Positions 4,789 through 46,864 of a stretch of 64,000 nucleotides of DNA are shown piece after piece. The notes under the pieces were generated by a model that saw only the letters and a program-made list of their open reading frames with translations, made no database searches and was not told where the DNA came from. Source of the DNA: Escherichia phage vB_Eco_Tribble. How positions within the stretch are numbered: position 1 is the first letter of the stretch; the number at the start of each line of letters is the position of its first letter. The stretch lies in the sequence record OX016465; one strand, 5' to 3'. Both the position numbers and the translations under genes were made by a program.

Positions 4789-6141
4789 ATGTGGAATCCA
4801 ATTGTTAATGTAGATATTACATTGAACACCGCAGGAACTACAAGAGAAGGTTTTGGTTTGCCACTATTCTTAGCTTCAACAGATAACTTTGAAGAAAGAG
4901 TACGTGGTTACACTTCCTTAACTGAAGTTGCTGAAGATTTCGATGAAAACTCTGCTGCATATAAGGCTGCTAAACAACTTTGGAGTCAGACTCCTAAAGT
5001 AACTCAGCTTTATATTGGTAGACGTGCTATGCAGTACACTGTATCAATTCCTGATGCCGTTACCGAAAGTACAGACTACTCAATTACTGTAGCTGTTGGC
5101 GGTGGAATTTCTCAACCATACCAGTACACAGCACAAGATTCAGACACTGCTGAGGTAGTGTTGCAACAGTTTAAAACACAGATTGAAGCTGACCCAACAA
5201 TCAAAGATAAGGTTTCTGTGAATGTAACTGGTAGCAATGGCTCTGCCACAATGATTATTACCAAAGCTGGTGATAATGACTTTGTGAAAGTAACAACCAC
5301 AGCACAGACTGTATATATTGCAAGTACAACTGCCGATACAGCAGCAACTGCTCTGGCAGCTATCGAAGCTTATTCTACCGACTGGTATTTCATTGCAGCA
5401 GAAGACAGAACTCAACAGTTTGTCTTAGCAATGGCTTCTGAGATTCAGGCTCGCAAGAAAATCTTCTTTACAGCTAACTCGGATGTAACAGCACTGCAAG
5501 GCACAGAACTAGCCAGTGCAAATGATGTTCCAGCACAGCTTGCTAAGAATATGTACACTCGTACAGTTTGCTTGTGGCATCACGCAGCAGCAGAAGATTA
5601 CCCAGAGATGGCATACATTGCTTATGGTGCTCCATATGATGCAGGTTCAATTGCTTGGGGTAATGCTCAGCTAACTGGTGTAGCAGCTTCTCTACAACCA
5701 TCTAATCAGAGACCTCTGACAAGTATTCAGAAGTCTGCTTTAGATGTACGTCACTGTAACTTTATTGACCTTGATGGTGGTGTTCCAGTGGTTCGTAGAG
5801 GGATTACTTCTGGTGGGGAATGGATTGATATCGTCCGTGGTGTTGACTGGTTAGAATCAGACCTGAAAACTTCTCTGAGAGACTTGCTAATTAACCAGAA
5901 GGGTGGTAAGATTACTTATGATGATACTGGTATTACCCGTATTCGTCAAGTCATTGAAACCTCTCTGCAAAGAGCAGTCAACAGAAACTTCCTGTCATCT
6001 TACACAGTTAATGTTCCTAAAGCCTCTCAAGTTGCTTTAGCAGACAAGAAAGCGCGTATCCTAAAAGATGTTACCTTCGCAGGTATCTTAGCAGGGGCTA
6101 TCTTGGATGTTGACTTGAAAGGTACAGTGGCTTACGAATAA
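4789..6141 (+). CDS. Tail sheath protein
   Basis: 450 aa ORF followed by a ~150 aa tube-like ORF, the sheath-tube order of contractile tails. Confidence 0.5.
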   Translation: MWNPIVNVDITLNTAGTTREGFGLPLFLASTDNFEERVRGYTSLTEVAEDFDENSAAYKAAKQLWSQTPKVTQLYIGRRAMQYTVSIPDAVTESTDYSITVAVGGGISQPYQYTAQDSDTAEVVLQQFKTQIEADPTIKDKVSVNVTGSNGSATMIITKAGDNDFVKVTTTAQTVYIASTTADTAATALAAIEAYSTDWYFIAAEDRTQQFVLAMASEIQARKKIFFTANSDVTALQGTELASANDVPAQLAKNMYTRTVCLWHHAAAEDYPEMAYIAYGAPYDAGSIAWGNAQLTGVAASLQPSNQRPLTSIQKSALDVRHCNFIDLDGGVPVVRRGITSGGEWIDIVRGVDWLESDLKTSLRDLLINQKGGKITYDDTGITRIRQVIETSLQRAVNRNFLSSYTVNVPKASQVALADKKARILKDVTFAGILAGAILDVDLKGTVAYE

Positions 6142-19138: not shown

Positions 19139-19510
19139 ATGAAGTGGATAGAGGAAGCTTTTAAAAATAATATTGGTGCAATTGTTGTTGGTATTTTTAG
19201 TGTTATTGGGATGTATACCACGATGCAAGTTTCAAGTGGTAAGCAAGAGGTGTCTGTCACAACAAAATTACAGCAGCTAGATAATTATAGCAAATCTAAT
19301 TACTCAGCTATTCGTGATTTACAGTCTGACATAAGACTTATTCAGTTAGGGATGGAGAACCAGAAAGTTCAGTTAGAGAATGTTAAGGGTGAGAATGCAA
19401 AACTTACCAAAACTCTTGATAAATTCTCTGACAGTGTGAATAATCTGGCTCAATCAGTATCAGCCCTCCAAGCTATTACTGAAAAGAACACAAAGAATAC
19501 TGAAAAATAA
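19139..19510 (+). CDS. Membrane-anchored coiled-coil protein
   Basis: N-terminal TM-like segment (IGAIVVGIFSVIGMY) followed by a coiled-coil-like region. Confidence 0.3.
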   Translation: MKWIEEAFKNNIGAIVVGIFSVIGMYTTMQVSSGKQEVSVTTKLQQLDNYSKSNYSAIRDLQSDIRLIQLGMENQKVQLENVKGENAKLTKTLDKFSDSVNNLAQSVSALQAITEKNTKNTEK

Positions 19511-19516
19511 AATTTA

Positions 19517-19550
19517 AGGCTCCTTTTTACGGGAGCCTTTTTTTTTTTTG
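19517..19550. terminator. Bidirectional intrinsic terminator between convergent modules
   Basis: AGGCTCC-TTTTTAC-GGGAGCC hairpin followed by 12 T; sits between the end of the plus-strand late operon (19510) and the end of minus-strand thyA (19553). Confidence 0.7.
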
Positions 19551-27289: not shown

Positions 27290-27846
27290 TCAGTGTACCT
27301 CATACCAGCTTTTACCAACCTTACCAGTACCTGTAACAAGTGTTTCTTTCTTAAGACCTAAGTTCTTAGAAGCTTGTCCATAATACCAGTCAGTAACTGC
27401 CTTCACCTCTGCCGTCATACTTTCTGGGCATTCCCAACTTGTCTCGTCGTGATAGGAGCACAATAAACGAGCACCTATAGCTGGTTTACGACCGTTCAAC
27501 TTCATCAAACCTTCGTCAATCATACGACGGCAAGCAAGGTTAATTGCTTCATTCTGAACCTGCGCCTCACTACCCATAAGTGTGTAATTCAATAACTTAT
27601 GTGGAGATTTACACCATAACCACGCTCCAGCGACCTGAATGTACCCACCCTTAGCGATTGCAGCACTCTTGCCGAAAACCTCTTCTAATGCCTTCTTAGT
27701 GGCCTTAAAATCGGCTTCTAAGTTATCAAGTAGTTTCTTAATCTTTGGTAGACGCATATAGTAGGTCTGCTTAGTCAATGCACCTTCCTCTGTAGAAGCT
27801 GCCTTAATGGTTTTGGCAAACTTCTCATCACCTGCACCGAACAATA
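27290..27846 (-). CDS. DNA polymerase (family A), exon 2
   Basis: Begins with LFGAGDEK, completing T7-type motif B (T7: …IYGFLYGAGDEK…); contains HDE motif C (SYHDET). 5' boundary is a model. Confidence 0.65.
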
Positions 27847-28651
27847 CATCTGGTCAATACACTCGCAAGGTGTACCAGTTCTCTTATGAACTTCTCCGCA
27901 TTTCTACGGAGTGTCGGACTATATCACGTAGTAGTAATACTACCGTTGCACTTGGGAATGGTCATTAGCTTACCACCCTACTCTACTCAGTTCATACATT
28001 AAGTATGCTTTTCGATAGTCTCTGAACGTTTCTCTGTTAGGAACTCTAAAATACTATTATTTACTAAGGTATGCAATTGCTCTCTTCATGTTCTCTATAC
28101 TATCTGAGAACAGCCCAAGACCTCTGTTACAGTTGTGACACAGCATACCTCTTACCTGTCCTGTTTTGTGGTCATGGTCAACAACCAGCTTGGCTTTATG
28201 TCTTGAACCATCCATGATAAAACCTTCACCACCGCAGATTTGACACTTGTGACCACACTTACTTAGTAACTCTTCGACCTCTTCTCTTTCTAAGCCGTAA
28301 GTCCTTAAGTAATAGTTCTTTACCCTTCCCTTTTCTCCACAAGCAGAACTGCAATACGTCTGTCTTGCTGTTCTAGGTGTAAACTGGTTATTGCAACTTG
28401 GACATATTTTCTCTATGACACGACTTGCTGCTCTTCTGTCTACTTCAAGAACGCAGTTTCTACAACGTTTTTGATTGTACTGATATGGCTTAAACTCTTC
28501 GCCACATCTGGAACAAACTCTTTCTTTATAACCTGCCATTGTCTCTCTCCCATTTCTACTATAGGAGTCCTAACAGAGACTTCGCTGCTGATTACCATAT
28601 CTTTTAAGACTTAGGCTTCCAGCAATTCACAACGTTTTACATGCGCCACTG
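27847..28651 (-). mobile_element. Group I intron in the DNA polymerase gene, carrying an HNH endonuclease ORF
   Basis: Interrupts pol at motif B; R-like GTTCAGAGACTATC (plus 28014-28027) and S-like GATATAGTCC (plus 27914-27923); modelled exon 1 ends in U and intron ends in G. Confidence 0.6.
28057..28539 (-). CDS. HNH homing endonuclease (endonuclease VII-like), intron-encoded
   Basis: HNH core LVVDHDHKTGQVRGMLCHNCNRGLG; several CxxC zinc-finger pairs; lies between the two polymerase segments. Confidence 0.8.
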   Translation of the reverse strand: MAGYKERVCSRCGEEFKPYQYNQKRCRNCVLEVDRRAASRVIEKICPSCNNQFTPRTARQTYCSSACGEKGRVKNYYLRTYGLEREEVEELLSKCGHKCQICGGEGFIMDGSRHKAKLVVDHDHKTGQVRGMLCHNCNRGLGLFSDSIENMKRAIAYLSK

Positions 28652-30824
28652 ACGCATAGATACCATTCTTAGCCTTCTTACGGCCTTTAGTTATCTCGTG
28701 AAGGAGTTCCTCATCCTGTGTCTCTCTACAACGGATAATATCTTCTTCTTTGTTCAATGCAAAATAGATACTGTTAAGTGTATGCGCATCAGTACCTGTG
28801 TAGACTTCATACAAATCATTATCAGCATCGTAACGACAATATTTATCAGCCTCTGGATTTAGGTACTTATCAAGATGCTTGCAGTAGTATCGTCCATCAT
28901 CCTGTTTAGTGAACTCTACAAACTCTTTACCTTCAGTTACCGCTTTGGTGAAGTCTTTATCACCCATAAAGTTACACAGTAAAACAAGCTGTGCAGAGTT
29001 CTGGTCAACTGAAACGATATTAGTCCCTTCCTCACAAATCCACACCTCCCTCATAGGTGCTCCATAGACAGCAGCACCAGACGGTACGTTTACAATACCA
29101 TATTGTGTCATACGTCCAGTTGAAGTACCAAACACCATTGCACCAGCACTAAGGCGACCATCTGGACGAATCTGGTTCAACCAACCTTTTTCATCATCCT
29201 TTGAGTTCTCAATAGTTCTGCGTCGGTGCATCAAAGTATAGTACTTAGCAATCTTCTGTCCAAGTTCACCTTCAATCGTATCATAAGATGATTCAGTAAG
29301 TTTTGGTGAAGTACGGATTAAGCAAGGCTCAAGCAAATCTGTGTACTTCTTCACAGACCAGTTATGCTCAATGTACTGTACACCTTCATGTTCAACATAA
29401 CTCAAACCACACCGCTCAACCATTTCCTGCCACTTAGGATGTTTTGTAATCATCTTTTTATTGTCTTTGAAACGACAAACTTTGACAGGGCGACCATCAG
29501 AGTCTTTCTTGTAGTTCCAGTCATCTGGAATCCAACCAACTGATTTCAAGTAGTCTTTAACAACTGCTACCTGAGTCATACGAGAAACTTCAAACTCAAT
29601 TGGTGTATATGGTGCATCAATCAAACCTGTGTAGCGACTTGACTCAAGTTCAAAGTGGTTAACAACGTGGCTGTTATAATACTTCACAGTTTTAACTGTT
29701 TTTACTGGCTTCCAGTCTTTGCATTTCTTACCAATCTTTGCGTTCAACTCATTGCAAATTGCACGAGCATCCTTCATTGCTACAAAGCCTTCCTTGTACT
29801 CTTCACCAGTTACAGTGTTGGTTGGTGTATAGCAATTCCTTTTTTCAATGTTAAAAATCTTTGTAGTTGGCTTACCAAATGGTTTGATTTCGTATGTCTG
29901 CATCTCGCCATTACGTACCTGCTGACGATACTTTGTCTTAGGGTACTTGGTAATTCTTTTCAGTCCATCTGCATGACCAAATGTTTCAACATACTCATTC
30001 CAAGCTTTTGCAAACTCTTCTCCAGTAACTTTACCTTTAGTCTTAATAGTTGGAGGAAGATGTGGTTCAACTTCTGAAGCAAGCTCATTAGTCAACTTGT
30101 CAAGTTCCTTTACATGGAACTCCATAAGCTCTTTATCAGCTTTCCAACCATTGATAGCTTGTTGACTCATCCAGAAAGATGTTTCTTTAGCTCGCATGTA
30201 AGTTTCATAAGTGTCTATACCACACTTCTTAAGCTTGAGATACTCGTTATCAAGTGCCCGTTTAGTTTTGGCGTTAATACGGATATCTTCTACAACACGA
30301 GTGAAGATTTCTGCATTCCACACACCCCAATGTTCAATCTCTGGTTTACGGACACCAACACGAGCACCCCATGCAGCCAAACCATGAGCACCTTTATAAC
30401 CCTTTGGAGTTGGCCTATCCATCCACTGAACACGAGACTGGATAAGAGAATCCTGAAAGAAATTACTCCACGGCTTACATTTTGGATTATCAAAATTCCA
30501 TAAATCAGGTGCAATGTGATTGAAAACCCACCAGTCATATCCGAGACCATTATGGATGCAAAGACGTTTTGCCTTTAACGCAAACTCAATACCTTCTCGT
30601 AAGCCACCCTTAATGTACTTAGTGTACTTGTGACCGAGGATAGGCTCATCTGTAAAGACCCATACAGGTGGCTCTTCATCGTCAGATTTATAGTCTGCAA
30701 AGGCCATTACGTGAACTTTAGTGAACTCAAGGAGTAAACCATCAGTTTCTGTATCACCAACCAAATGTAAGTTTTTAAAATCTACGTTTTCCATTTTTAC
30801 TCCCTCTAAAACCATTAACCTCAT
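28652..30824 (-). CDS. DNA polymerase (family A), exon 1 with 3'-5' exonuclease domain
   Basis: Exo I motif LVGDTETDGL; polymerase motif A region (VSVDQNSAQLVLL); ends inside motif B (…RKKAKNGIY). The annotated ORF runs 14 codons into the intron before a stop at 28611. Confidence 0.75.
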
Positions 30825-43977: not shown

Positions 43978-45174
43978 ATGAACAAAGTACAGATTATTAA
44001 AAAGAACGGCTCACTCGAAGAACCAGATATCAAAAAAGTTTTAGCAGCAGTCACTAAGTCAGCTAATAGGGTTGGGTATAAAGAACTACCACCAGATGTT
44101 ACCCAAGCTCTTGAGTCAGCATTTATGAGGATTCTGGTAAAATCCACTAAGCAGAATAATTTACTCATTTCAGTAAATGATATTCACAGTATTGTTGAGG
44201 GTGCTTTGGCAGAAGTCAATCACGAGATTTATGAGTCTTACTCAACATATAGAAATTACCGTAAAGAAGTTGCTCAAAATTGGGATGAACTCTACCAGAA
44301 GACCAAAGATACACTCTTCTTAGGCGACAGAGAGAATGCTAACTTTGACAGCAGTTTAATTTCTACAAAAGGCTCAATTATTCGTGGTTACCTGACTAAA
44401 GAAATCTTTAAACAGTACCATTTAACACCAGAGGAACTTGAAGCCATTGAAAAAGGGTTTATCTATATCCATGATTTAAGAGACCTAATTTTTGGTGGTA
44501 TCAACTGTTGCCTGTTTGACATTGGTAAAGTGCTGAAAGGTGGCTTTGAAATGTCTGGCATTGAATACTGTGAACCGAAGTCTGTGCTGTCAGCCTTACA
44601 GGTTATTGGTGATGTAGTTCTTTCAGCAACTGCACAGCAATTTGGTGGCTTTACTTTAGCAGAGATTGATAAGGTACTTGTACCGTATGCTAAGAAGTCT
44701 TTAGTGTACCACTCAGAGAAAGCTGAAGAGTACGGAATCCCTAAAGAGCAACACTATAATTACGTAATGGAGCAATTACAGAATGAGTTAACACAAGGTT
44801 TCCAATCTCTTGAAATGAAACTTAACACTGTTCCTTGCAGTCGCGGTGATTTTGCATTTACTACTCTGACATTTGGTCTGTTGGAACCAGATATGCACAA
44901 TGAAGATAACCGTCTTCAGTTTATGATTGCCAATACAATCCTTAACGTAAGGATGAACGGGCAAGGAAAAAGCAAAAAACCTGTTGTGTTCCCTAAACTT
45001 GTGTATATCTATGAAGAAACGAGACATAAGCTTGATGTATGCCAAGCAAGGTTGTTTGAAAAAGCTATTGAGTGTTGCTCTAAAGCTATGTATCCAGATT
45101 TCTTAAGTGTAACTGGACATGGTGCTGTAGCAGAGGCTTTTGAGCGTTCTGGTAAGGTAATTTCCCCGATGGGT
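43978..45174 (+). CDS. nrdD: Anaerobic ribonucleoside-triphosphate reductase (class III), exon 1
   Basis: N-terminal ATP-cone; ends …VISPMG, matching E. coli NrdD …TPMG|CRSFL…; annotated ORF stops one codon later inside the intron. Confidence 0.75.
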
Positions 45175-45916
45175 TAACAAGCTCTATAGCTCATCTAAAA
45201 CGTGCCTAAACAGGGAAACTCTACAGATGTAGACAATCCTGTGCTAAATGATGTACGATGTAAGAAACTATACAACATAGGAGTCTTACATGCCAAACTA
45301 TCACGTCACTGAAGATGGAAAAGTCTTTAGGGAAAATGGTGTAGAGCTTACGCAGTGGAAATCCAACACTGGGTATATGAAAGTGAGGTTTTACGGTAAG
45401 AAGAATCGTGACATGTATGTCCACAGGTTAGTTGCTGAGAAATATGTACCTAACCCGAACAATCTTCCAATTGTAAAACATAAGGACGATAACAAACTAA
45501 ATAACCACGTATCTAACTTAGAATGGGGTACTCATTCTGAGAATGCTAAAGAAGGTTATGAGAATGGATGTTACAAGTTCCACAAGCGTTCATATGCCGT
45601 GAAAGCCACACACAAAGTGACAAAGGAAGTTATTGTTACTAAGTCAATACGAGAGTTATCCAATATACTTGGATACAATCGCAAGACCATCTCTTCAATA
45701 TTGAAGGGTGTAAAAGAGCATAATAACTTCGAATATGAGTTTGAATACATCTAAATGCCGAACGACTAACCGTGATGAATGTAGCGGTGTAGGGTCAAGC
45801 GACTCGAAATGGTACGCTACTTAGAAATAAGTAGAAGATATAGTCTGGACTTACTGGCGACAGTAAGCAGCTTGAATAAAGCGGGGTAAGCTTAGCGAAC
45901 TTACCTGAACAATAAG
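45175..45916 (+). mobile_element. Group I intron in nrdD carrying an HNH endonuclease ORF
   Basis: Exon 1 ends in U (…ATG GGT), intron ends in G (…AATAAG); P-like AACAGGGAAA (45209-45218), Q-like AATCCTGTG (45235-45243), R-like GTAAGAAACTATACA (45260-45274), S-like AAGATATAGTCT (45835-45846). Confidence 0.7.
45290..45754 (+). CDS. HNH homing endonuclease, intron-encoded
   Basis: HNH motif VHRLVAEKYVPNPNNLPIVKHKDDNKLNNHVSNLEWGTHSEN; AGGAG Shine-Dalgarno before ATG. Confidence 0.8.
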   Translation: MPNYHVTEDGKVFRENGVELTQWKSNTGYMKVRFYGKKNRDMYVHRLVAEKYVPNPNNLPIVKHKDDNKLNNHVSNLEWGTHSENAKEGYENGCYKFHKRSYAVKATHKVTKEVIVTKSIRELSNILGYNRKTISSILKGVKEHNNFEYEFEYI

Positions 45917-46864
45917 TGTAGAGCATTTTTATCATCATACCATAACGAATATGGTGAAGAGTTTTATGTAGGTCGTGCTAACATTGGTGCTGTATCTTTG
46001 AACTTACCAATGATTTACCAGTATTCTAAAGAGAATGGCTTAGATTTCTGGAAAGAGCTTGATAAGTACCTAGAAATGATTCGCAGCTTCCACAAGAAAC
46101 GTTACGAAATGATTGCTAATATGTCAGCAAGTTCTAACCCTCTTGCGTTCACACAAGGTGGTCTGTACAAAGGGAATAAGAAACCTACTGACAAGGTTGG
46201 CTGGGATATCGTGAAGTCCTTCACAGCTTCTTTTGGGGTTACTGCGCTTGATGAGCTATCTGTTCTTGCTGAAGGTAAACGACTTCATGAAGTTGGAAGC
46301 TGTAGTTTTGCATATGATGTTCTGGAATATATCAACATGAAGACTGAAGAGTTTAAAAATGAAGATGGCTTCTTATATGCAGTCTATGGCACTCCAGCAG
46401 AATCACTTTGTGGAACTCAGCTAAAACAGTTCAGAGATATGTTTGGCGTTATCAAAGGCGTTTCTGACAAGGAATACTTTACAAACAGTTTCCATATGAA
46501 TGTTGCAGCAGATATTACACCATTTGAGAAGCAGGACTTAGAAGAACCCTTCTTCCATATCTGTAGAGGCGGCAGAATCCAGTATGTAAGAGTGGCTAAC
46601 CCAGAAAACTTATCAGCACTTAAGAGTTGTATTACAAGAGGGATGTTGAAAGGTTTCTATCAGGGACTTAACTTTGACTTAGCAATCTGTGAACATTGTG
46701 GTAACAGACCAAAGGCTGATGCTGAAGAATGTGAGGTTTGTCATTCACACGATATCTCTGTGATTAACAGGGTGTGCGGATATTTGGGATGGACTAAGAT
46801 TAAAGGTGAATCCCGAATGAATGATGCAAAAATCGCTGAGATTCGCGACAGAATTTCTATGTAA
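45917..46864 (+). CDS. nrdD: Anaerobic ribonucleoside-triphosphate reductase, exon 2
   Basis: Frame open from 45917: CRAFLSSYHNEYGEEFYVGRANIGAVSLNLP aligns with E. coli CRSFLGVWENENGEQIHDGRNNLGVISLNLP; C-terminal zinc ribbon and glycyl-radical loop RVCGYLG. Confidence 0.75.
   Translation, partial: CRAFLSSYHNEYGEEFYVGRANIGAVSLNLPMIYQYSKENGLDFWKELDKYLEMIRSFHKKRYEMIANMSASSNPLAFTQGGLYKGNKKPTDKVGWDIVKSFTASFGVTALDELSVLAEGKRLHEVGSCSFAYDVLEYINMKTEEFKNEDGFLYAVYGTPAESLCGTQLKQFRDMFGVIKGVSDKEYFTNSFHMNVAADITPFEKQDLEEPFFHICRGGRIQYVRVANPENLSALKSCITRGMLKGFYQGLNFDLAICEHCGNRPKADAEECEVCHSHDISVINRVCGYLGWTKIKGESRMNDAKIAEIRDRISM

Follow-up and report, generated by a model that had tools for sequence, protein, structure and literature searches.

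The nrdD gene of Escherichia phage vB_Eco_Tribble, which encodes a class III (anaerobic) ribonucleotide reductase, lies in two pieces separated by an insert of 742 nucleotides (nt), and the locus raises the question of whether this insert is removed from the transcript as an intron and, if so, what kind of intron it is and how it moves. We addressed this question in a stretch of 64,000 nt from sequence record OX016465 (hereafter the window; all positions are those of this stretch and all features are on the plus strand unless stated otherwise), in which the insert occupies positions 45175-45916. An earlier note on this DNA had proposed a group I intron with an HNH endonuclease and with splice junctions that could be inferred precisely. 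Our analysis indicates that the insert is very probably a mobile group I intron with an HNH endonuclease gene, splitting nrdD after the Gly codon and before the Cys codon of the finger-loop motif PMG/C (here and below a slash within a sequence marks the junction).

The split nrdD gene and its splice junction

The source DNA is that of a Felixounavirus: across positions 43978-46864 it shares 99.2% identity with Escherichia phage vB_EcoM_Alf5 and 99.0% with phage pinkbiff, and nearly all of the 302 phage records that match this region belong to the genus. Exon 1 (43978..45174, 399 codons), delimited from the list of open reading frames (ORFs), from Pfam and from colinearity with intron-less alleles, encodes an ATP-cone and the N-terminal half of NrdD. 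Its product ends in ...SGKVISPMG with GGT as the last codon, in agreement with the earlier note, so that U45174 forms the 5′ splice site, and an in-frame TAA follows directly at 45175-77. Exon 2 (45917..46864, 315 codons plus stop), delimited from Pfam and an alignment with T4 NrdD, opens with a Cys codon and carries the glycyl-radical domain; as had been claimed, the frame reopens at 45917, from where it reads CRAFLSSYHNEYGEEFYVGRANIGAVSLNLP... up to the stop at 46864. The Pfam NRDD profile is divided between the two exons, exon 1 covering positions 1-250 and exon 2 positions 264-560, while ATP-cone stands in front of the split gene and Gly_radical at its end. The joined product of 714 amino acids (aa) aligns with residues 20-590 of the T4 NrdD chain 1H78 (expectation value E=1e-78), and the spliced ORF is colinear with class III ribonucleotide reductase NrdD, the finger-loop Cys and the glycyl-radical domain included.

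A junction probe in which 400-nt pieces of the two exons were fused matched 227 records, 202 of them over most of its length, and the match was uninterrupted in many, including Felix O1, garuso, Barry, DR094 and DE17. In the intron-less Felixounavirus alleles of Felix O1, garuso, Barry, DR094, DE17 and typing phage 11 the sequence is ...CCGATGGGT/TGCAGAGC..., that is PMG/CRAFL, with nothing in between, and the intron-less alleles of the genus join at GGT/TGY. The nrdD junction is therefore exact, and the earlier note was right to call it precisely inferable; a different junction in intron-less relatives, which it had named as the finding that would speak against it, was looked for, and the relatives agree with PMG/CRAFL. 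Because intron and exon 2 both begin with T, the junction could slide by one base, and the group I rule of an exon-terminal U and an intron-terminal G settles it as 45174/45175 and 45916/45917. The insert has the length and the final G attributed to it, a terminal G is present in 12 of the 12 same-site introns that we extracted, and all coordinates of the earlier note proved correct.

No start codon is listed between the opening of the exon 2 frame (45896) and 45917, and the second nrdD coding sequence (CDS) as annotated starts with TTG at 45998, 27 codons downstream of the Cys codon. The exons are free of frameshifts and stops in every intron-bearing allele examined and are colinear with the intron-less alleles. 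An intein was considered and rejected, given the stop codon directly after exon 1 and the position of the inserted ORF in another frame.

Structure and class of the intron RNA

The intron (45175..45916, 742 nt) was assigned from partial matches to the Rfam family RF00028, from covariation and from homology to the td intron, and its structure was read from the sequence together with the Rfam alignment. It comprises a 5′ core (45201..45255), a 3′ catalytic core (45764..45845) and a peripheral 3′ domain (45850..45916) that ends in the intron-terminal ωG45916. An internal guide sequence at 45181..45195 was recognised by direct complementarity: its second part (45189-95, GCUCAUC) forms P1 with the 7 nt that close exon 1 (GAUGGGU, 45168-74), a helix that contains the wobble pair U45174·G45189, and its first part (45181-88, GCUCUAUA) is fully complementary to UGUAGAGC at the start of exon 2 (45917-24), giving a P10 of 8 perfect pairs. 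The P1 hairpin is also the minimum free energy (MFE) fold (z = -2.9). Its U·G pair is invariant in 7/7 introns, and the outermost P1 pair covaries between G-C, C-G and U-G along with the exon codon.

Within the core, P3 (45201-06 with 45811-16) and P4 (45210-14 with 45238-42) are placed by the Rfam alignment and by compensatory changes, and P6 (45243-44 with 45757-58) and P7 (45764-68 with 45841-45) by the Rfam alignment and pair counts. Compensatory changes also mark the P5 hairpin (45220-33; strands 45220-24 and 45229-33), P7.1 (45769-72 with 45785-88) and P7.2 (45792-96 with 45801-05), and P6a (45250-55 with 45746-51) shows a double-sided change at 6/6 pairs. P8 (45817-23 with 45828-34) is a short intact hairpin of 7 bp, followed by J8/7 (45835-40, AAGAUA), and the segment J8/7-P7 agrees with the consensus GAAGAUAUAGUC in the Rfam alignment. 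The 3′ domain consists of P9 (45850-56 with 45861-67) and P9.2 (45885-90 with 45900-05), each with several compensatory changes, and P9.1 (45870-73 with 45879-82), which is placed by a hand-curated table and pair counts. P2 is absent, because UAAAA alone separates P1 from P3.

Covariation was examined among homologues in nrdD of other phage groups, found by a distant blastn search with the intron as query. Seven same-site nrdD introns from five phage lineages were aligned from sequence only with MAFFT after the P6a loops of the ORF-bearing copies had been cut; P3/P7 was counted as a pseudoknot, and a 192-nt intron from the IMG/VR contig L053 was left out of the counts, which comprised 59 pairs in 13 helices (408 pair cells). 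Standard pairs occupied 99.3% of the 408 cells, compared with 31-42% when the 3′ partners were slid by 1-3 columns, and a double-sided change was found at 24/59 pairs, compared with 1-2 after sliding; in 500 column shuffles neither the observed pairing nor the observed covariation was ever reached. Several compensatory changes each were seen in P3, P4, P7.1, P9 and P9.2, and P7 and most of P1 were uninformative because they are invariant. Since MAFFT misaligned the hairpins of variable length (P5, P8, P9.1 and the tip of P7.2), the formal test is limited to their base-proximal pairs; the hand-curated helix table agrees for P5, P8, P9.1 and P7.2, and is biased towards the structure to which it was fitted. 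From these alignments we read the RNA as a conserved P3-P8 core with a P3/P7 pseudoknot, backed by covariation. Of the core elements reported by the earlier note, Q is the P4 3′ strand and R the P7 5′ strand, within a structure that extends from P3 to P9.2.

When RF00028 was searched in permissive mode, by E-value, it matched the insert on either side of the ORF, with 15.6 bits at 45210-45293 (model positions 60-138) and with 33.1 bits at 45687-45867, where E=2e-6 for the local region. A natural 316-nt allele in phage momo, which has a near-identical core and no ORF, scores 54.4 bits against the threshold of 50, and the ORF-less same-site introns of ECGD1 and of the IMG/VR contig L052 reach 70.4 and 70.5 bits. 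The subgroup is IA2, that of the T4 td, nrdB and sunY introns: the hairpins P7.1 and P7.2 follow the 5′ strand of P7 and precede the 3′ strand of P3, an arrangement that Michel and Westhof in 1990 reportedly took to define this subgroup.

Splicing would be expected to follow the group I pathway. The guide (45181-95) would pair with the last 7 nt of exon 1 as P1 and with the first 8 nt of exon 2 as P10, and the P3-P8 core, with its P3/P7 pseudoknot and P7.1/P7.2, would bind a guanosine in P7. This guanosine would attack after U45174, and the 3′-OH of exon 1 would then attack after ωG45916, ligating the exons into an nrdD frame of 714 codons. The predicted ligated junction is ...AUGGGU/UGUAGAGC..., corresponding to ...CCGAUGGGU/UGUAGAGCA... 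in a complementary DNA (cDNA) shorter by 742 nt.

Endonuclease gene, distribution and exon 2 tract

The ORF at 45290..45754 encodes a protein of 154 aa that was correctly recognised by the earlier note as an HNH endonuclease: it scores 41.2 bits against Pfam HNH_3 (PF13392; cut-off 24.8) and matches I-HmuI (PDB 1U3E) end to end (E=5.6e-9), so that we annotate it as an I-HmuI-like, putative homing endonuclease. Pfam NUMOD1 reaches 17.6 bits, under its cut-off of 22.8, and the alignment with the 1U3E chain takes in the C-terminal part, extending through residue 170. The residues equivalent to H75, N87 and N96 of I-HmuI are the catalytic His and the two Asn of the HNH motif, and all three are retained in 6 homologues, those of JSE, HMD-6 and F100 among them. 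Between Felixounavirus copies that differ at 45-50 nucleotides the ratio of nonsynonymous to synonymous substitution rates (dN/dS) is 0.06-0.07, and the protein is therefore under purifying selection.

The position of the gene in the RNA differs from that proposed by the earlier note, which had placed it between the R- and S-like elements, where P8 would lie. It lies between Q (the P4 3′ strand, 45238-42) and R (the P7 5′ strand, 45764-68), in the loop of P6a, and P8 is intact at 45817-34. The last two sense codons, UAC AUC (45746-51), form the 3′ strand of P6a, and the stop UAA (45752-54) falls in the junction to P6. In JSE, HMD-6 and F100 the HNH ORF ends in ...EMPND followed by the stop and crosses the 3′ strands of P6a and P6 as well as J6/7; the stop codon lies inside the P7 5′ strand (GACUAG) in these phages, whereas the window ORF terminates directly behind P6a. 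Because the ORF runs into P7 in the three phages, its translation must compete with folding of the ribozyme. Upstream of the window gene, a hairpin at 45258..45291 in the MFE fold encloses the Shine-Dalgarno sequence AGGAG (45279-83) and the first two bases of the start codon, and an analogous hairpin pairs the Shine-Dalgarno sequence in JSE (z = -2.1). Translational damping by hairpins is known for T4 intron ORFs, and by analogy the hairpin might act as a translational brake on the endonuclease.

With the intron as query, 95 records matched at >=90% identity, 60 of which cover >=80% of the query and represent the full form, and about 35 are ORF-less; these counts, like those of the junction probe, include GenBank/RefSeq duplicates. 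Three allelic states occur in the genus, namely the full intron, an ORF-less intron of 316 nt, and the intron-less gene in the rest of roughly 200-300 records, so that roughly one third to half of the sampled genus carries the intron. The 316-nt insert, found in momo, EC6, SEP1 and BPSELC-1, is the nrdD intron with a single 426-nt deletion that takes out nearly all of the HNH ORF; the start codon has become ATA and both P6a strands are kept. The momo copy lies at 1901-2216 of the locus L002, and the form is also present in EC6 (L140) and about 35 further records. The uniform length of the 316-nt form in all copies seen points to a single deletion that then spread.

Beyond the genus, the same intron and HNH pair occupies the MG/C site in Krischvirus JSE, in Vequintavirus HMD-6 and navn and in Vibrio phage F100, and ORF-less forms occupy it in Justusliebigvirus ECGD1 and in the IMG/VR contigs L052 (251 nt) and L053 (192 nt). 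A scan of IMG/VR with a 14-mer from the P7.1 loop gave 120 loci, almost all of them chance matches; 10 of the 120 have a group I J8/7-P7 motif downstream, and 4 of these 10 are same-site nrdD introns. The L053 intron (5160-5351; IMG/VR UViG_3300045988_115516) stands at MG/CR in a more distant nrdD. Inspection by eye shows P1, P10, P3-P9, P7.1 and P7.2 and no P9.1/P9.2; the intron falls below the Rfam gathering score, and 192 nt is unusually small for a complete IA-type intron. Two HNH endonuclease genes lie between the nrdD fragments of F100 (L007 1-3700), and the nrdD of navn (L130 1-2700) has an additional split upstream of the MG/C intron. Records named Campylobacter phage A126 and A135 and Staphylococcus phage SA1 (H58, H78 and H104) contain a Felixounavirus-like nrdD at 86-88% identity; these look like mixed or mislabelled assemblies, not real host jumps.

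The start of exon 2 differs with the presence of the intron. Over its first 60 nt the window departs from garuso and Felix O1 at 12-14 positions, and garuso and Felix O1 differ from each other at 3, even though these two are overall the more divergent pair (90.5%). In a Felixounavirus panel of 7 intron-bearing alleles (5 with and 2 without the ORF) and 6 intron-less alleles, from which VSe102 was left out, a variant tract linked to intron presence spans 45919..45970 (+3 to +54) and is mostly synonymous: +3, +18 and +26 are fixed between the classes, and +39, +48 and +54 nearly so. The change at +3 (U vs C) completes P10, and that at +26 turns Leu/Phe into His (CAU). No comparable intron-linked tract was found on the exon 1 side of the same 7-vs-6 panel. 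A tract confined to one side in this way would be expected from co-conversion that starts at a break or nick a short distance downstream of the insertion site. A JSE-like donor of the tract was considered and rejected, since the common sequence amounts only to TGTAGA and CATAAC, and no donor can be named.

On the homing model that we infer from these sequences, the HNH product is predicted to nick or cut an intron-less nrdD near the insertion site in a mixed infection, and repair from the intron-bearing genome would carry the intron, and with it about 50 nt of the neighbouring exon 2 sequence, into the recipient. A wider proposal follows the distribution described above: a single mobile lineage of intron plus HNH gene, homing to G289/C290 immediately 5′ of the catalytic Cys codon (T4 numbering), may have crossed at least five unrelated phage groups (Felixounavirus, Krischvirus, Vequintavirus, Justusliebigvirus and Vibrio phages of about 138 kb) and left a strictly one-sided exon 2 co-conversion tract of about 50 nt. 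We advance it tentatively, judging it slightly less probable than its negation; if it is true, the tract would imply recognition and nicking downstream of the insertion site by an I-HmuI-like enzyme.

Several observations weigh against a splicing, mobile intron. The case for splicing is drawn from sequence. An Rfam scan of the whole window at the gathering score (50 bits) returned no match to RF00028, and the group I covariance-model scan for which the earlier note had called thus gave a divided answer, negative for the window copy at threshold, with sub-threshold partial matches beside the ORF and with 54.4 bits, above the threshold, for the ORF-less allele; it is reasonable, on indirect grounds, that the window copy falls below the threshold because the 465-nt ORF inside P6a interrupts the match. 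The metal ligand Asp74 of I-HmuI is replaced by Lys in the window, JSE and HMD-6 proteins and by Cys in that of Vibrio phage F100, and the endonuclease may therefore not be catalytically competent; the residue before the catalytic His varies in many HNH_3 proteins. The Shine-Dalgarno hairpin is only weakly distinguished from shuffles (-9.8 kcal/mol, z = -1.8), as is its JSE analogue, a promoter scan near the HNH ORF gave no signal above shuffled expectation, and the exon 2 tract could also be explained by selection for P10 pairing or for resistance to cleavage.

If a free-standing HNH gene had instead been inserted here without a functional ribozyme, the two NrdD halves would be translated separately and then assemble, for which the NrdA of Aeromonas phage Aeh1, split by mobE into halves that assemble into an active enzyme, is a precedent (PMC3653736). 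Most public records annotate two nrdD CDSs flanking an HNH gene, two papers likewise describe the locus as a gene in pieces, and the literature speaks of a 'split nrdD gene' (PMC4837284), all in keeping with this arrangement. Yet the 277 nt outside the ORF form a complete, covarying group I core, and ORF-less versions of 316 nt and 251-290 nt persist at the site and pass Rfam, which an insertion of the endonuclease alone leaves unexplained. Exon 2, moreover, offers no listed start codon up to and including the Cys codon, and a separate second product begun at the annotated TTG would lack the segment equivalent to Cys290. We therefore consider separate translation extremely unlikely. Little more credit is due to the idea that the insert is a decayed group I descendant, which splices poorly or not at all and leaves nrdD a tolerated pseudogene, anaerobic deoxynucleotide synthesis being dispensable in laboratory hosts; we regard it as very improbable. 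The gene is probably not essential under aerobic propagation, and decay would be in line with the missing P2 and with the sub-threshold Rfam score. It is hard to reconcile with core helices that are all intact, with 99.3% of cells paired, with a J8/7-P7 segment that agrees with the consensus GAAGAUAUAGUC, and with exons that remain open in all the intron-bearing alleles; the absence of P2 is a family trait rather than decay, because JSE, ECGD1, HMD-6, F100 and L052 likewise have no room for it between P1 and P3.

The intron might also splice while its HNH protein is no longer a homing nuclease and persists as a remnant, a maturase or a regulator, with the distribution arising from ordinary recombination and descent. 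The Lys in place of Asp74 and the NUMOD1 score under the Pfam cut-off point this way, as does the fact that about one third of the intron-bearing Felixounavirus records have lost the ORF by the one 426-nt deletion and kept the intron. The low dN/dS, however, denotes strong constraint on the protein, its His and both Asn are conserved at about 40-50% identity across four phage lineages, always at the same nrdD site, and a one-sided exon tract linked to the intron is the kind of trace that homing with co-conversion leaves. On balance we find the loss of homing activity unlikely, and retain the reading of a mobile intron with a homing endonuclease.

Earlier reports, neighbouring features and related introns

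Felix O1 has been described as having no introns in these genes (PMC3185647), consistent with the intron-less Felix O1 nrdD allele found here. Moreno Switt et al. and Bardina et al. reported that a homing endonuclease interrupts nrdD in some Felix-like phages and did not term it an intron (PMC3728262, PMC4837284). The announcement of Salmonella phage Meda states that an HNH endonuclease interrupts the large subunit of the anaerobic reductase and that 'another intron' is present in the DNA polymerase gene (PMC6486253); in the Meda record nrdD is joined from two pieces, the intron between them being about 94% identical to that of the window, and nrdD of the ECGD1 record is annotated as a join as well. 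The nrdD intron is thus already recognised in a close relative. A 'putative intron' of JSE is mentioned second-hand in a further paper (PMC3468402). In the literature searched we found no account of the secondary structure, of the IA2/td relationship, of the exact site before Cys290, of the same-site family across five phage groups or of the exon 2 tract.

These results bear mainly on annotation. Most of the approximately 95 intron-bearing Felixounavirus records show nrdD as two fragments plus a free-standing homing endonuclease, and the correct annotation is one spliced CDS joined at GGU/UGU together with an intron-encoded HNH gene. The locus adds a further textbook phage group I intron at the most conserved, catalytically critical codon of a gene of nucleotide metabolism, and its three natural allelic states with a linked exon tract offer a convenient natural system for the study of homing and endonuclease loss; the general understanding of group I introns and homing endonucleases is unchanged.

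Around the gene, the order is nrdB, glutaredoxin, a small membrane protein and nrdD, with nrdG further downstream, and its synteny with the records of Felix O1, garuso and Alf5, which are annotated, identifies the neighbourhood as the Felix O1 nucleotide-metabolism block. On the minus strand, a family A DNA polymerase gene is split across 27290-30824 into an N-terminal ORF (28611-30824) and a C-terminal ORF (27290-27844) that covers positions 218-380 of Pfam DNA_pol_A. This split is presumably the first intron of the earlier note, for which the nrdD insert was the second intron with an HNH endonuclease in the window; that description suits nrdD, but the 160-aa ORF inside the polymerase split (28057-28539) matches Pfam Endonuclease_7 and not HNH_3. 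Weak RF00028 matches flank this ORF, at 28511-28624 (23.8 bits) and 27894-28068 (15.2 bits). The polymerase intron of Meda was reported to have no endonuclease (PMC6486253), and the window would therefore carry an ORF-containing form. Elsewhere, 19464-19548 gave a sub-threshold Rfam match to the small RNA STnc100 (27.1 bits against a gathering score of 47, E=0.065), which is probably due to chance.

Compared with its nearest counterparts, the window intron shares the MG/CR site and the RNA family with the introns of Meda, JSE, ECGD1, HMD-6, navn and F100, all of which except that of ECGD1 also have an HNH homologue in P6a; Meda, from the same genus, carries the same intron, and outside Felixounavirus the RNA is about 70-77% and the HNH protein about 40-53% identical. 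The intron of T4 nrdD (sunY) has the same host gene, is likewise a group IA phage intron and has similar termini (UAAC... to ...GAACA...G). The two insertion sites differ, however, as the comparison proposed by the earlier note revealed. The sequence SPMGCRSFL corresponds to T4 NrdD residues 286-294 (PMGC to 287-290), which places the window intron between the codons for G289 and C290, and the T4 intron lies in codon 180, some 110 codons upstream. C290 is the finger-loop cysteine to which Logan et al. in 1999 and Andersson et al. in 2001 reportedly assigned the thiyl radical. The T4 record annotates I-TevII, a GIY-YIG endonuclease, in its nrdD intron, and the HNH_3 assignment of the window protein upholds the claim that the two endonucleases are of different families; identity with the T4 nrdD intron was rejected on both grounds, site and endonuclease.

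The closest RNA relative outside the same-site family is the td intron of T4-type phages, to which the last 160 nt are about 71% identical (E=4e-11) in a colinear alignment from J6/7 through P7 to the 3′ splice site, while the 5′ core of td (UCUAUCUAAACGGGG...GACAAUCCCGUGCUAAAU) hardly differs from that of the nrdD introns. Judged by this similarity, the nrdD intron RNA is a homologue of the T4 td intron, a td-type ribozyme whose guide sequence has been fitted to nrdD. Both T4 / RB3 td and the window intron belong to subgroup IA2, with nearly identical J3/4, P4, J5/4 and P6, with P7, P7.1, P7.2, P8, J8/7, P9, P9.1, P9.2 and the 3′ end in colinear order, and with an ORF in the P6a loop, that of I-TevI in td, with the P6a 3′ strand right behind it. 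They differ in the host gene and guide sequence, in the P2 and the GIY-YIG family endonuclease I-TevI of td, and in the P7.1 loop, which is longer in the nrdD intron. The endonuclease, in contrast, resembles I-HmuI, the strand-specific nickase encoded by the group I intron in the DNA polymerase gene of Bacillus phage SPO1: the similarity runs through the N-terminal β-strands, the HNH motif and the region of the C-terminal helix-turn-helix, although overall identity is low, Asp74 is a Lys in the nrdD protein, and the host gene and the intron are different.

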